DNA from: Kiritimatiellia bacterium | Lineage (GTDB): Bacteria > Verrucomicrobiota > Kiritimatiellia > RFP12 > JBMNHG01 | NCBI GenBank assembly: GCA_050950285.1 | Contig: JBMNHG010000001.1 | Span: 1-52,886, forward strand | Direction: 5' to 3' | Length of the DNA stretch: 52,886 bases | Part shown: piece by piece, positions 8,973 through 12,578 of the stretch | How the letters are laid out: each line of letters opens with the position of its first letter | Numbering within the stretch: the first letter of the stretch is position 1 | Translations under genes and position numbers: made by a program | Notes under the pieces: model-generated | The model's input: only the letters and a program-made list of their open reading frames with translations | Database searches by the model: none | Told to the model about the DNA's origin: nothing

Positions 8973-9011
8973 TCCTGGCGGCAGCTCCGGTGGCGAAACG
9001 CGGCGGGGGAT

Positions 9012-9065
9012 CTGTCGGACGGGTCGGACGGGTCGGACTCGTCTGACTCGTCGGACTGGTCGGAC
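9012..9065. repeat. Intergenic 9-mer tandem repeat (NNGTCGGAC) x6
   Basis: ctgtcggac gggtcggac gggtcggac tcgtctgac tcgtcggac tggtcggac. Confidence 0.9.
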
Positions 9066-9095
9066 TCGGCGGTGGTGGCGCGTGCGGAAGGTCTG

Positions 9096-9104
9096 TGATA
9101 TTCT
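9096..9104 (+). promoter_or_regulatory. Extended -10 promoter, likely giving a leaderless mRNA
   Basis: TGaTATTCT ends 6 nt before ATG 9111; no Shine-Dalgarno sequence. Confidence 0.5.
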
Positions 9105-9110
9105 GGGGCC

Positions 9111-10361
9111 ATGAAACGCAAGACCCAGAACACGTTTATCCTGGCACTGATCTATCTGGCCGTCGCGGCGGCGGGCTGGTTTGGCGGACGCATGGCCACG
9201 GGCCTGACGCCCCTGCGCAGCGGGATGAACGGCCTGCAGGTGGCCGGTGTCGTGGCCTTCGTGCTCGCTTGTACCGCCCTCTTTTCGCTGGCGACGCAGC
9301 TGGTCTTCAAGCTCCGCCGCCGTCCGGCGGTCGAGGGCTTCATGCTGGCGCGCCTCTACTGGCTGGTGGCGGCCCTTGTCGCCATCGGGGCCATCGCCTA
9401 CGGCTTCGGCGTGCTCGGCACCTTCGGAACGGCCTTCAGCATGTTCGGCGGCATGCTGCTGGGCTGGTCGCTGCAGGCGCCCGTGAGCGGCTTCGCCGCC
9501 TGGGTGCTCGTCTCGCTCAAGCGTCCCTTCCGCCCGGGAGACCGGGTGCAGTTCCCCAGCCTGGGGCTGACCGGCGACATCATGGAGATCGGCCCGATGT
9601 ACACGGTGCTCAACCAGGTCGGGGGCTCGATCGCCAGCGAAGAGGCCGTCGGCCGCCACATCCTCGTTCCCAACGCCATGCTCTTCGGGCAGGTGGTCAT
9701 CAACTATACCGCCACGCGCGAGGCCTCGTTCATGCTCGACGAGGTGGTCGTGCGCATCACCTACGACTCCGACTGGCGCGCCGCCGAAAAGATCCTGCTC
9801 GACGCCGCCAAGGACGTGACGGCGGATGTGATCGAGGTGACCAAGGAGGAGCCCTACATCCGGGCCGACCTCTACGACTACGGCGTCTACCTGCGCCTTC
9901 GCTACCGCACGCGGGTCAAGGATCGCGCCGAGACCAGCTACCTGATCAACAAGCGCATCTTCGAGAAGGTCCAGCGCACGCCGACCGTCGACCTGGCGAT
10001 TCCCTACATCTACTCCTACCGCTCGGGCCACGACCGTCGCACCGACGAGGCGCGCCGCGGCGCCCAGGACGCCGGGGTGCAGCAGATCGAGATCGCGCGC
10101 ATCCGGCCCGGACCGACCAAGCCGGATTCGCAGGACGTCGAGCAGCTGTCGCGCAGCATCGCCGCCGAAGGGCTGTTGCAGCCGGTCATCCTCGCGCTGG
10201 ACGGCGCCAGCGGCGAATACGAGGTGCTGGCGGGCGAGCTGCGCCTCGAGGCCTGCCGCCACCTCGGCTGGACGAAGGTGCCGGCGCTGATCCACCGCGC
10301 CGGCACGCCCGGGGCGGCCGGCATGGCCGAACCGCCCGACAGCGGCGCGCCCGCGCCGTAG
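9111..10361 (+). CDS. MscS-family mechanosensitive channel fused to a C-terminal ParB/Srx-like domain
   Basis: 416 aa. N-terminal TM helices; MscS beta-domain KRPFRPGDRVQ...GDIMEIGPMYTVL...ILVPNAMLF...INYT; MscS C-domain VRITYDSD...LAIP; then a ParB N-terminal-like segment IEIARIRP...LSRSIAAEGLLQPVIL...YEVLAGELRLEACRHLGWTKVPALI. Confidence 0.85.
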   Translation: MKRKTQNTFILALIYLAVAAAGWFGGRMATGLTPLRSGMNGLQVAGVVAFVLACTALFSLATQLVFKLRRRPAVEGFMLARLYWLVAALVAIGAIAYGFGVLGTFGTAFSMFGGMLLGWSLQAPVSGFAAWVLVSLKRPFRPGDRVQFPSLGLTGDIMEIGPMYTVLNQVGGSIASEEAVGRHILVPNAMLFGQVVINYTATREASFMLDEVVVRITYDSDWRAAEKILLDAAKDVTADVIEVTKEEPYIRADLYDYGVYLRLRYRTRVKDRAETSYLINKRIFEKVQRTPTVDLAIPYIYSYRSGHDRRTDEARRGAQDAGVQQIEIARIRPGPTKPDSQDVEQLSRSIAAEGLLQPVILALDGASGEYEVLAGELRLEACRHLGWTKVPALIHRAGTPGAAGMAEPPDSGAPAP

Positions 10362-10412
10362 CCCGCCGCGAACCAGCGCCCCGACATCCCCGCCCCCGTT
10401 CCGCATGCCGCC

Positions 10413-12578
10413 ATGAAAATCCTCAACTTCGGCTCGGTCAACATCGACCACGTCTACCACGTTCCCCGCTTCCTGCAACCCGGCGAGACGATGGCCGCGG
10501 CCTCCTCCGCGCGCTTCCCCGGCGGCAAGGGCTTCAACCAGAGCGTGGCGCTTGCCCGCGCCGGCGCCAGGGTCTTCCACGCCGGACACGTTGGCGCGGA
10601 CGGCGCGTGGCTCGTCGATTTCCTTCGCGCCGAAGGGGTCGATACGACATTCCTCACGCCGGTGGATGCGCCGACGGGCCATGCCATCATCCAGGTCGAC
10701 CCCTCCGGCCAGAACTGCATCCTTCTCGACGGCGGCGCGAACCGGCGCCTCGCGGCGGACGACGTCCGCGCCGCGCTCGCGGGTGCCGCCATCGGCCCCG
10801 GCGACGTCGTTCTCCTGCAGAACGAGACCTCCGCCACGGCGGAGATCCTCTCCCTCTCCGCCGCCACCGGCGCCACGGTGGCCTTCAACGCCGCGCCCAT
10901 GGGGGAGGAGGTGGCCGGCCTCCCGCTGGACAAGGTGGGGCTCTTCATCGTGAACGAACTCGAAGGGGCCGCCCTGTGCGGCACGCCGGAAGAGACCGAT
11001 GGCGGGAAGATCCTCGATCGCCTGCGCACGAAGTTCCCGGAGGCGGACATCCTTCTCACGCTGGGCGCCTCCGGCAGCCTCTACGGCCCGCACGCCGACC
11101 GGCCCGCCGTGCACGCCTTCCCCGCGCAAAGCGCGCGCGTGGCGGACACCACCGCCGCGGGCGACACCTTCACCGGCTACTTCCTTGCCGCGCGCGCCGA
11201 AGGCGCCGGCCCCGTCTCCGCGCTGGACATCGCCACGCGCGCGGCGGCCGTGTGCGTCTCGCGGCCGGGCGCCGCGCCCTCCATCCCGCGCCGCGACGAA
11301 CTGGCGGCGCCGTGGGACGACACCCTGTTGCGCGGCGTCTGCGACCGCGACCCCGTCTCCTACGCAACGGGCGACCCCATCGTCTTCACGCTGCGCTTCG
11401 AGAATCCGCCCGAAGCCCGCCACGCGGAGGGCTGCGAAGTGCGCTGGCGCCTCGAGGGCGACGACGGCGCGACCGCTTCGGGCGCCGTCCCCGCCGCGGA
11501 CGTGATCGCCGCGCCGCTGGAGATTCGCGCATCCCTTGCCTGCCCCGGCTTCGTCCGCCTCCGCGCCGTCCTGCATGGGCCCGACGGACGCCCCGTCTGC
11601 CATCCTCTCCGGAACGAGGAATGGTGGGAGCCGCTGATCGCCTTCGACGGCGGCGCGGGCGCGGACATCGACGCACTCCGCGCCGAGCCGGAACCCGCCG
11701 ACTTCGATGCGTTCTGGGAGCGGCAGAAGGCGAAACTCGCCACCGTTCCCGTGCGCGCGGAGCGCGTGGAGGCGGCTTCGCCCGACCCGGCGCTGCGGAT
11801 GTTCGCGGTGACGGTCGACTGCCCCGGCCCCCGCCCCGTCACGGGCTACCTCTCCATGCCGGCCGGCGCCTCGCCCGCAAACACCTTCCCCGCGCAGGTC
11901 TTCTTCCAGGGCTACGGGATGAACGCGCCCGCGCCCGACCGCGTCTCCCAGCCGCTTCCCCGCGACGCCATCCGCTTCGAGATCAACGCCCATGGCGTGG
12001 ACCTCGGCCGCGACGACTACCGCTACTACAACGACTTCTTCATGGCGCTCTTCTCCAACGGGTACCCCTACGGCTTCGACCCGGAGCAGAACCGGGATCC
12101 CGAGACCGCCTACTTCGCCGCGATGGCCCTGCGCGTGCTGCGCGCGCTCGAATACGTGCGGACGCTTCCCGAGTGGAACCGGAAAGACCTCGTCGCGCTC
12201 GGCGGAAGCCAGGGCGGCCTGCAGGCGATGTGGGCGGCGGGACTCGACCCCCGGGTGACCGAGGCCTACCCCGACATCCCATGGTGCTGCGACCTGGCGG
12301 GCGTCACCGCGAACCGCATGGCCTCGCCATGGCGCATCCCGTACGTGCCCGGCATCGACTACTTCGACCCCGTCCACCACGCCCGGCGCGTCCGTTGCCC
12401 CGTCCACATCCCGCGCGCCGGCCTGGGCGACTACACCTGCCCGCCCTCCGGCATCGCCATCCTCTACAACAACCTCGCCCGCGCGAAATCCATCCGCTGG
12501 GTCCAAGGCTCGCAGCACGGCTACATCCCGCCCGAACCCAACCAGGAAGCCTTCCGCGAGGCCGCCGGCCCGGAGTGA
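10413..12578 (+). CDS. PfkB/ribokinase fused to an acetyl xylan esterase (CE7-like)
   Basis: 721 aa. Ribokinase motifs GSVNID, PGGKGFNQ, LLQNE, NELE, DTTAAGDTF. Esterase half PEPADFDAFWE, GGSQGG (Ser), LGDYTCPP (Asp), GSQHG (His). Confidence 0.85.
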   Translation: MKILNFGSVNIDHVYHVPRFLQPGETMAAASSARFPGGKGFNQSVALARAGARVFHAGHVGADGAWLVDFLRAEGVDTTFLTPVDAPTGHAIIQVDPSGQNCILLDGGANRRLAADDVRAALAGAAIGPGDVVLLQNETSATAEILSLSAATGATVAFNAAPMGEEVAGLPLDKVGLFIVNELEGAALCGTPEETDGGKILDRLRTKFPEADILLTLGASGSLYGPHADRPAVHAFPAQSARVADTTAAGDTFTGYFLAARAEGAGPVSALDIATRAAAVCVSRPGAAPSIPRRDELAAPWDDTLLRGVCDRDPVSYATGDPIVFTLRFENPPEARHAEGCEVRWRLEGDDGATASGAVPAADVIAAPLEIRASLACPGFVRLRAVLHGPDGRPVCHPLRNEEWWEPLIAFDGGAGADIDALRAEPEPADFDAFWERQKAKLATVPVRAERVEAASPDPALRMFAVTVDCPGPRPVTGYLSMPAGASPANTFPAQVFFQGYGMNAPAPDRVSQPLPRDAIRFEINAHGVDLGRDDYRYYNDFFMALFSNGYPYGFDPEQNRDPETAYFAAMALRVLRALEYVRTLPEWNRKDLVALGGSQGGLQAMWAAGLDPRVTEAYPDIPWCCDLAGVTANRMASPWRIPYVPGIDYFDPVHHARRVRCPVHIPRAGLGDYTCPPSGIAILYNNLARAKSIRWVQGSQHGYIPPEPNQEAFREAAGPE

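Follow-up and report, generated by a model that had tools for sequence, protein, structure and literature searches.

An MscS-like channel gene with a C-terminal ParB/Srx-fold domain in a Kiritimatiellia genome

The fused gene and the integrity of its reading frame

We analysed a 52,886-nucleotide stretch of DNA from a Kiritimatiellia bacterium (GenBank assembly GCA_050950285.1, contig JBMNHG010000001.1, positions 1 to 52,886 of the forward strand), hereafter called the window, and focused on one gene at window positions 9111..10361 on the plus strand, which encodes an MscS-like channel with a C-terminal ParB/sulfiredoxin (Srx)-fold domain. As seen in the list of open reading frames (ORFs) and in the translation, the gene starts with ATG, ends with a stop codon at 10359-10361, and encodes 416 amino acids (aa) with zero internal stops. 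A preliminary description, made from the letters of the sequence, had read it as a single uninterrupted 416-aa ORF in which an MscS core is followed by a linker and a ParB N-terminal-like domain at about 10075-10298, with no helix-turn-helix (HTH) or parS-binding domain. This observation was confirmed, and the strings quoted in it (LAIPY, GLLQP, GELRLEA and LGWTKVPALI) are all present in the translation.

Both families were found by Pfam on the one chain, above their curated cut-offs. Specifically, the MS_channel beta-domain (PF00924) matched residues 125-200 with 32.2 bits (cut-off 20.2), and ParB_N (PF02195) matched residues 323-396, that is window 10077-10298, with 46.3 bits (cut-off 26.3); the latter match covers profile positions 3-79 of 95, and the end of the family model is missing. 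The MscS C-terminal domain (PF21082) was matched at residues 211-289 with 17.3 bits, under its cut-off of 21, which was passed in relatives such as P0143 and P0183. The best NCBIfam match of the tail was the Noc model, far below its cut-off. Neither an HTH nor another DNA-binding family was reported for the 416-aa protein in the Pfam and NCBIfam scans; the same scans gave no C-terminal dimerisation domain, the protein stopping 20 residues past the N-domain core. No family that binds cyclic nucleoside monophosphates (cNMP) was present among its Pfam hits at E <= 1.

A fusion of this kind could also be produced by an assembly chimera or by a frameshifted gene pair, and one related locus (L042), in which the MscS and ParB parts lie in different frames, would fit such an origin. 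The junction was checked in four sequencing runs compared over 9000-10500. Run X5 comes from a digester metagenome and carries no flag as a possible source; one of its contigs, 10,504 nt long, spans 9000-10273 with one differing letter and zero gaps, and in run X6 contigs span 9846-10036 and 10007-10297. No insertion or deletion across 9000-10500 was reported in any of the four runs; an indel at the junction was among the results that, by the preliminary description, would have refuted it. A variant of about 94% identity is present in X6 and in the metatranscriptome run X17, where its contigs cover 9405-9810 and 9972-10252; the X17 match was not taken as expression because such libraries can contain DNA. 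Forty variant sites were listed, 30 of them on codon position 3, 6 on position 2 and 4 on position 1. This distribution is the pattern of a translated, constrained frame, and the ParB-fold tail is, judging from the sequences, under purifying selection, which argues against an artefact. Together with the independent contigs that cross the junction, the loci of other genomes, in which both domains share one open frame in 77 of 80 cases (see below), refute the artefact explanation and confirm that the MscS and ParB_N fusion is real.

Channel core and ParB/Srx-fold tail

All features described here lie on the plus strand, and all conservation figures come from a family alignment of 34 sequences. 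The channel part is similar to E. coli MscS, YnaI and other homologues (PF00924; PDB 2OAU, 2VV5, 7DLU and 9H2V) in its beta-domain, pore helix and RPFRxG[DE] motif. Three N-terminal membrane helices are predicted at residues 2-28, 41-68 and 73-99 (9114..9407) in an AlphaFold2 model, with a predicted local distance difference test score (pLDDT) of 77-93; the mean column identity of residues 1-70 is 0.45. E. coli MscS has one helix fewer before its pore helix, so that the model gives one additional N-terminal membrane helix here. The pore-lining helix TM3a/TM3b (residues 102-137; 9414..9521) was placed by phmmer alignment to E. coli MscS chains and by invariant columns, and it includes a stretch, F112-G-G-M-L-L-G-W-S-L-Q-A-P-V-S-G127 (window 9444-9491), that is invariant across the 34 homologues from many phyla. 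The helix aligned with the E. coli chains at a constant offset of 10 residues; the alignment to these chains and to 7DLU is gap-free through residues 112-144, and the pore helix, followed by the RPFRxG[DE] motif, matches E. coli MscS residue for residue. At this offset the invariant M115 and W119, which are hydrophobic but bulkier, replace L105 and L109, the gate leucines of the E. coli pore, and A123-P124 stands at the G113 kink. A fixed, bulky Met/Trp constriction in the aligned sequences might give a narrower or more selective pore.

The pore helix leads into the MscS beta-domain (residues 125-200; 9483..9710) and then into the alpha-beta (cage) domain (residues 211-289; 9741..9977), the latter called from the PF21082 match below its cut-off and from the alignment to 7DLU, the best solved MscS match (E 1e-10), which reaches residue 282. 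The core ends in a conserved C-terminal strand (residues 291-306; 9981..10028), in which D294, A296, I297, P298, Y301, S302, R304 and G306 are invariant and a strand was modelled at 301-304; by analogy with E. coli MscS, we assign it to the barrel at the lower end of the cage. Mean column identity was 0.76 in the pore region, 0.88 in the beta-domain, 0.79 in the alpha-beta domain and 0.86 in the last strand. Compared with MscS homologues, this core is thus unusually conserved across phyla (0.76-0.88) and bears a ParB-fold tail. On the analogy with MscS, the protein should assemble as a heptamer with a cytoplasmic cage.

The core is followed by a flexible linker (residues 307-322; 10029..10076) of variable length among homologues, which carry insertions there, with an identity of 0.40; in the full-length monomer model from AlphaFold2 (mean pLDDT 73, predicted TM-score (pTM) 0.43), residues 302-320 have pLDDT <50. 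Next comes a minimal ParB/Srx-fold domain (residues 323-396; 10077..10298), and the chain closes with a Pro/Ala/Gly-rich segment (residues 397-416; 10299..10358) that is unconserved (mean identity 0.16), has pLDDT <50 and is probably disordered. When the domain was modelled alone, its core reached pLDDT 86-95, with beta1 at 323-327, alpha1 at 340-353, beta2 at 359-363, beta3 at 370-374, alpha2 at 376-385 and beta4 at 389-395. Foldseek returned 50 PDB matches to this model at E <= 0.001, first M. xanthus ParB with CTPgammaS (E 1.3e-7) and Noc, next Caulobacter ParB-CTPgammaS and B. subtilis ParB-CDP, and then sulfiredoxin, PadC, KorB, SbnI and a serine kinase. The probability was 1.00 to ParB, Noc, Srx, PadC and KorB, in agreement with the fold proposed in the preliminary description, and against ParB/Noc N-domains the root-mean-square deviation was 1.5-2.3 Å with 29-35% identity over ~78 aligned columns. 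Noc also came first in a profile-versus-PDB search (E 9.9e-18). In a protein atlas, the nearest non-channel clusters were 82-83-aa ParB_N proteins with a score of 0.95, which we treat as a lead only.

We then compared the tail with the nucleotide-contacting motifs of canonical ParB. In the available text of Jalal 2021, the cytosine amino group is recognised by the S74 side chain and the G79 main chain of Caulobacter ParB, Q58 in P-motif 1 and E102 in P-motif 2 are put forward as possible catalytic residues, and P-motif 3 is made of helix alpha3 and the alpha3-alpha4 loop, which swap between subunits and touch the nucleotide at N-domain engagement. According to the available text of Kaljevic 2025, the core shared by members of the ParB-CTPase fold consists of the C motif and the GxxR P motif; the paper calls Box III 'often absent' in non-canonical members, reports that the fold members tested bind CTP, ATP or GTP, and regards the fold as able to act as an independent unit 'like sulfiredoxin'. 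Caulobacter residues were mapped through the printed alignment to 6T1F, for which chain index + 10 gives the native numbering. The C motif (Box I) is present as helix 340-353 and the loop G354-L-L-Q-P358 (10128..10184) with 91-100% conservation: S74 corresponds to S349 (91% of the 34 homologues) and G79 to G354 (97%), and L355, Q357 and P358 of the loop are kept in 100, 94 and 100%, respectively. The Box II P motif, G375-E-L-R378 (10233..10244), is the GxxR motif as defined in the available text of Kaljevic 2025. Its glycine, G375, is found in 100% of the homologues, R103 is replaced by L377 (Leu in 97%), and R104 corresponds to R378 (97%); the family consensus is G-H-L-R, A381 follows in 97%, and neither C382 nor L385-G386-W387 varies in the alignment. 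The preliminary description had counted one of three arginines of this patch as kept. R378 is indeed kept, but that wording undersells the motif, since R378 is the GxxR arginine itself.

The remaining motifs of canonical ParB were not recovered. Q58 aligns with K337 within the unconserved residues 333-338, R60 falls inside a 4-residue deletion, and the position of E102, here E376, is variable (H 21, Q 5, E 4, R 3, D 1 in the 34 sequences). Compared with the ParB/Noc N-domain (PDB 7BM8, 7BNR, 6SDK and 7NFU), the tail thus has the same fold, the C-motif Ser/Gly and the Box II GxxR arginine, but is without P-motif 1, Box III / P-motif 3, helix alpha3, the HTH and the C-terminal dimerisation domain. 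With these elements lost, the tail cannot be a DNA clamp or a ParB-type CTPase; on its motifs, we place it within the core definition of the ParB/Srx fold and outside that of the canonical ParB CTPase or DNA clamp.

The structural matches also bear on a different function, in which the tail would be an enzyme-like module that, like sulfiredoxin or the ParB-fold serine kinases, carries out an ATP/ADP-driven modification of a nearby substrate or of the channel. Foldseek matched the tail to sulfiredoxin 6KY4 (TM-score 0.73, target-normalised), SerK and SbnI at E 1e-5 to 1e-4. The domain is sulfiredoxin-sized and has the minimal fold of sulfiredoxin and of ~100-aa single-domain ParB-CTPase-fold proteins, and a histidine follows the motif glycine in 21/34 homologues. 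The residue after the motif glycine is catalytic in sulfiredoxin; here, on the other hand, it is variable. Moreover, the sequence is clearly closer to ParB/Noc (E 1e-10 to 1e-7) than to the enzymes (1e-4 to 1e-3), with a weak similarity to sulfiredoxin (profile E 9e-4), and the domain here is fused to a channel. C382, four residues past R378, faces V or A of Noc/ParB in the printed alignments and may just pack in the core. We therefore regard an enzyme-like tail as highly unlikely.

Given that the closest solved sequence relatives are Noc and chromosomal ParB N-domains, the tail might instead pair with the N-domain of the cell's own ParB/Noc, or tie the channel to the nucleoid or partition complex. 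Two other ParB_N proteins are encoded in the genome, and Noc couples CTP binding to membrane binding, as stated in the introduction of Kaljevic 2025. However, the tail lacks the subunit-exchanged helix alpha3 and the alpha3-alpha4 loop as well as an HTH, and the 80 loci described below showed no conserved linkage of the gene to parAB. A link to chromosome partition is, in our estimate, likewise highly unlikely.

Distribution, inheritance and genomic context

Of 8,000 candidates scored in a word-indexed search, 1,010 proteins reached E <= 0.001; of the 120 relatives listed, with identities of 55-92%, PF02195 was present in 120 and PF00924 also in 119. When 1.84 billion cluster representatives were searched exhaustively, 4,665 hits reached E <= 0.001, 471 of them 1e-10 and 63 of them 1e-30. 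When 45 of the 150 listed representatives were scanned with Pfam, longer ones being chosen, 8 had both domains, 35 had the MscS domain without ParB_N, and 2 had neither. Close MscS-only cores of 45-59% identity carry no appended family (P0125, P0132, P0134 and P0142-P0144), another close core has a zinc ribbon (P0141), and a further one has a partial HATPase_c in a record that may be truncated or chimeric (P0126). Because the closest cores carry a zinc ribbon, a partial HATPase_c or nothing, the ParB module looks exchangeable, and these sequences suggest that the MscS core accepts interchangeable C-terminal cytoplasmic modules. One 1,531-aa protein with 12 matched stretches (P0191) was considered as a multi-ParB protein and rejected; its Pfam matches are scattered over unrelated families, and it was taken as repetitive. 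One JGI source name, that of P0061, reads 'small-conductance mechanosensitive channel/uncharacterized ParB-like nuclease family protein', so automated annotation has already seen both halves.

For the analysis of loci, one genome per GTDB species was used. Two peptide patterns matched 225 stretches. A relative is encoded by 141 of these, and the analysis used the best 80, each of which comes from a metagenome-assembled genome (MAG). Both domains lie in one open frame in 77 of them, indicating that homologues in other genomes are fused as well, against the refuting case named in the preliminary description that they would never be fused. The exceptions are L042 with its two frames, L079, which is cut by a contig end, and L064, which has the core only. 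By the submitters' labels the loci come from 14 phyla, including Planctomycetota, Lentisphaerota, Bacillota and Chloroflexota as well as two archaeal-labelled bins. Within the phylum of the source organism, the full-length form was found in 5 of 301 sampled genomes (the source genome G000, and G170, G262, G003 and G269), in none of the 32 other same-order genomes listed, and as a core without the tail in G293 and G251.

A quick maximum-likelihood tree was built from 75 loci and the window copy, leaving out L042, L079, L064, L013 and L057 as broken, truncated or tail-less. It required 19 phylum-label changes, where the minimum is 13 and the shuffled mean 38.5. The window copy lies inside a 12-row Lentisphaerota/Kiritimatiellota clade (SH-aLRT 100), which is nested in a 21-row group (SH-aLRT 99) with nine Planctomycetota rows. 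Descent is thus mostly coherent within lineages, presence is patchy, and a few placements cross phyla; the latter could be due to gene transfer or mis-binning. The fused gene also occurs in two MAGs labelled as archaea, L021 and L028 (Thermococci and Hadarchaeota), where the first extracytoplasmic loop is longer by an insertion of 60-70 residues. These two sequences pair together (SH-aLRT 100) and are nested among bacterial ones, through either gene transfer or mis-binning.

We also surveyed the neighbours of the gene by all-against-all clustering of ORFs >= 90 aa from the 80 loci. No conserved partner gene was found across these loci. The best non-overlapping cluster was rejected as an operon partner, being present at 11/80 loci at a median distance of ~2 kb, and the other clusters are alternative-frame or antisense ORFs that overlap the gene itself. 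In the window, the flanking genes are unrelated to the channel: they encode a 1,209-aa PATR-repeat protein, a PfkB-AXE1 fusion, RadC and UxaC. With no conserved partner and with unrelated neighbours in the window, the channel gene appears to work alone. The PfkB-AXE1 gene lies downstream (10413-12578, plus strand) and is itself a fusion of a PfkB-family sugar kinase (residues 3-292) and an AXE1 acetyl-xylan-esterase (residues 425-632).

Upstream, at window 9014-9065, there are six 9-bp-phased copies of GTCGGACNN, one of them degenerate, 46-97 bp before the start codon. A three-unit pattern of GTCGGACNN gave 59 matches in the genome and 0 for the reversed control; the matches form about a dozen arrays on contigs C1, C2, C3, C8 and C11, and in other metagenomes short high-depth contigs and loose ends accumulate at the array. 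No array of this type was found upstream of the homologous gene at the 80 related loci. The array was rejected as a regulator of the channel gene, because it recurs across the genome and does not precede the homologues; we class it as a dispersed minisatellite.

The two other ParB_N proteins of the genome are the presumed chromosomal ParB on C6 (97.7 bits) and a protein on C3 (G000:C3:32610-32813, L003), the third ParB_N-containing protein, which has a 492-codon open frame and scores 40.1 bits. Five Bacillota-labelled MAGs, G301-G305 (loci L061, L073, L077, L082 and L031), have the fused channel and also Noc-like proteins, often encoded in tandem by ParB/Noc-type genes; one of these proteins exceeds the TIGR04285 cut-off with 326.8 bits, and another falls just short of it with 313.8 bits.

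A candidate ligand-regulated channel

We propose, with a probability of roughly 0.5, that the protein is a ligand-regulated MscS-like channel whose ligand is most likely a cytidine nucleotide, namely CTP, CDP or a CDP-linked metabolite. The chain would run past the last cage strand through the flexible linker (~16 residues) into the ParB/Srx module of ~75 aa, and seven such modules would hang directly beneath the cage. Each module would hold a nucleotide in the manner of sulfiredoxin-sized fold members, ligand occupancy would shift how the tails sit against the cage or against one another, and the altered tail placement would bias opening, inactivation or conduction. A cytidine nucleotide is suggested because S349 and G354 align with two cytosine-reading residues. 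Since only one of the three phosphate motifs is left, CTP would be no likelier a ligand than a di- or monophosphate or a CDP-linked metabolite, and contacts contributed by the channel itself would be equally likely. In the alignment, conservation within the tail is highest at the pocket elements, while the linker and the C-terminal end vary (0.40 and 0.16, as given above). A ligand-binding module fits better than a decayed remnant because these conserved elements line the nucleotide pocket in relatives.

In the literature search, a single experimental case was found that connects a ParB-like protein with an MscS channel, and it comes from S. aureus. According to the available text of a preprint (Shah, Kanampalliwar, Bae 2026, bioRxiv 10.64898/2026.05.29.728642), parBL (SAUSA300_0361), annotated as a putative transcriptional regulator, is co-regulated with mscS (SAUSA300_0362), and co-expression of the two, neither gene singly, cuts oxacillin resistance 4- to 32-fold and also lowers potassium and c-di-AMP. 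Compared by the description in that text alone, this operon is similar to the gene studied here in that a ParB-like protein is genetically coupled to an MscS channel; it differs in that two separate genes are present there, the ParB-like gene first, whereas one fused gene is present here. A bolder version of our proposal would make the protein a cytidine-nucleotide-gated MscS, the first ion channel under the ParB-type 'CTP switch' fold, with S. aureus ParBL and MscS as its two-gene version. In such a system, the pore's tension threshold or its inactivation would be set by seven tethered modules that sense CTP or a CDP-linked envelope precursor, and turgor relief would thereby be coupled to the cell's envelope-building capacity. 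We consider this version rather unlikely.

Several observations weigh against a ligand-regulated channel. P-motif 1 is absent, with the Q58 counterpart K337 unconserved and the R60 counterpart deleted, Box III / P-motif 3 is absent, the Pfam match stopping at profile 79/95, and the position of the catalytic-candidate glutamate is variable; because two of the three phosphate-contacting motifs are missing, triphosphate binding in the manner of ParB is not expected. GLLQP and GxxR could be kept for folding alone. The word 'cytidine' is a guess from two aligned residues because, in the available text of Kaljevic 2025, nucleotide specificity is not predictable from sequence or AlphaFold3. The position of the tail is not fixed by the monomer model, given its pTM of 0.43 and the linker pLDDT of <50, and the proposal draws on sequence, models and analogy for every member of the family. 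In addition, no split ParB-like ORF was found at E < 1 in the flanks of the close MscS-only relatives L064, L090 and L091. PF00924 was present in 244 of 251 genomes sampled from the phylum of a Bacillota-labelled MAG, and when +/-4 kb was searched around 60 of 150 listed PF00924 matches (312 in all), a ParB-type domain near MscS was found at 0/60 loci at E < 0.01 in this phylum, which may not include Staphylococcus; as a positive control for the hidden Markov model, the genome's two other ParB_N proteins were found at E 2e-7 and 5e-9. Given these negative results, the S. aureus pair may represent an unrelated association. Note that a homodimer prediction for residues 318-400 (two copies, own alignment, without controls) scored 0.02 against a mark of 0.42 and speaks neither for nor against binding.

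The loss of two phosphate motifs and the variable catalytic-candidate position would also fit a ligand-free scaffold, in which the tail is a protein-protein interaction or packing module that forms a collar under the cage, clusters channels or recruits a cytoplasmic partner. The invariant C382 and L385-G386-W387 are not nucleotide contacts in the available descriptions and could form an interface or core, and a tethered tail would, we infer, be at a very high local concentration. However, conservation in the tail is highest in the base-reading C-motif loop and at the GxxR arginine, neither of which a pure scaffold need retain, and no conserved neighbour suggests a dedicated partner (11/80 loci for the best non-overlapping cluster). 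We see a scaffold as a possible but doubtful explanation of the tail, and the ligand-regulated channel as the preferred one.

The nearest analogy to the ParB-tailed MscS is offered by the bCNG channels, which a September 2026 review of MscS-like gating describes as MscS-like channels with a C-terminal nucleotide-binding domain. In both cases, a domain of nucleotide-binding type is attached to the cage C-terminus of an MscS core, a likeness of design and not of membership. The appended fold is cNMP-binding in bCNG and ParB/Srx here, and bCNG channels are mostly found in cyanobacteria, whereas the present family occurs in MAGs labelled Planctomycetota, Lentisphaerota, Bacillota, Chloroflexota and others. 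The same review contains no occurrence of ParB or CTP, and the main text of the survey of ParB-fold fusions in Kaljevic 2025 is without the words mechanosensitive, MscS or channel and names no partner from membrane transport, although its supplementary tables may list the pair. No paper describing a fusion of MscS and ParB was found in the literature search, which agrees with the preliminary view that the architecture is uncharacterised. The architecture is conserved and apparently undescribed, and is best placed among the MscS-like channels that bear an additional sensor domain.

Specialised roles are attributed to sensor-bearing channels of the MscS type, and the ParB-CTPase fold is, according to the available text of Kaljevic 2025, increasingly recognised as a general nucleoside-triphosphate-binding module that is reused through fusion. 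The ParB-tailed MscS unites these two themes in a compact and strongly conserved system made of one gene. Should the tail bind no ligand, the family would still clearly exemplify how a nucleotide-binding fold can be pared down to a structural role. If it binds a nucleotide, it would add a new ligand class for a bacterial mechanosensitive channel and would open a mechanistic route to why, as the preprint reports, ParBL is needed together with MscS in S. aureus.

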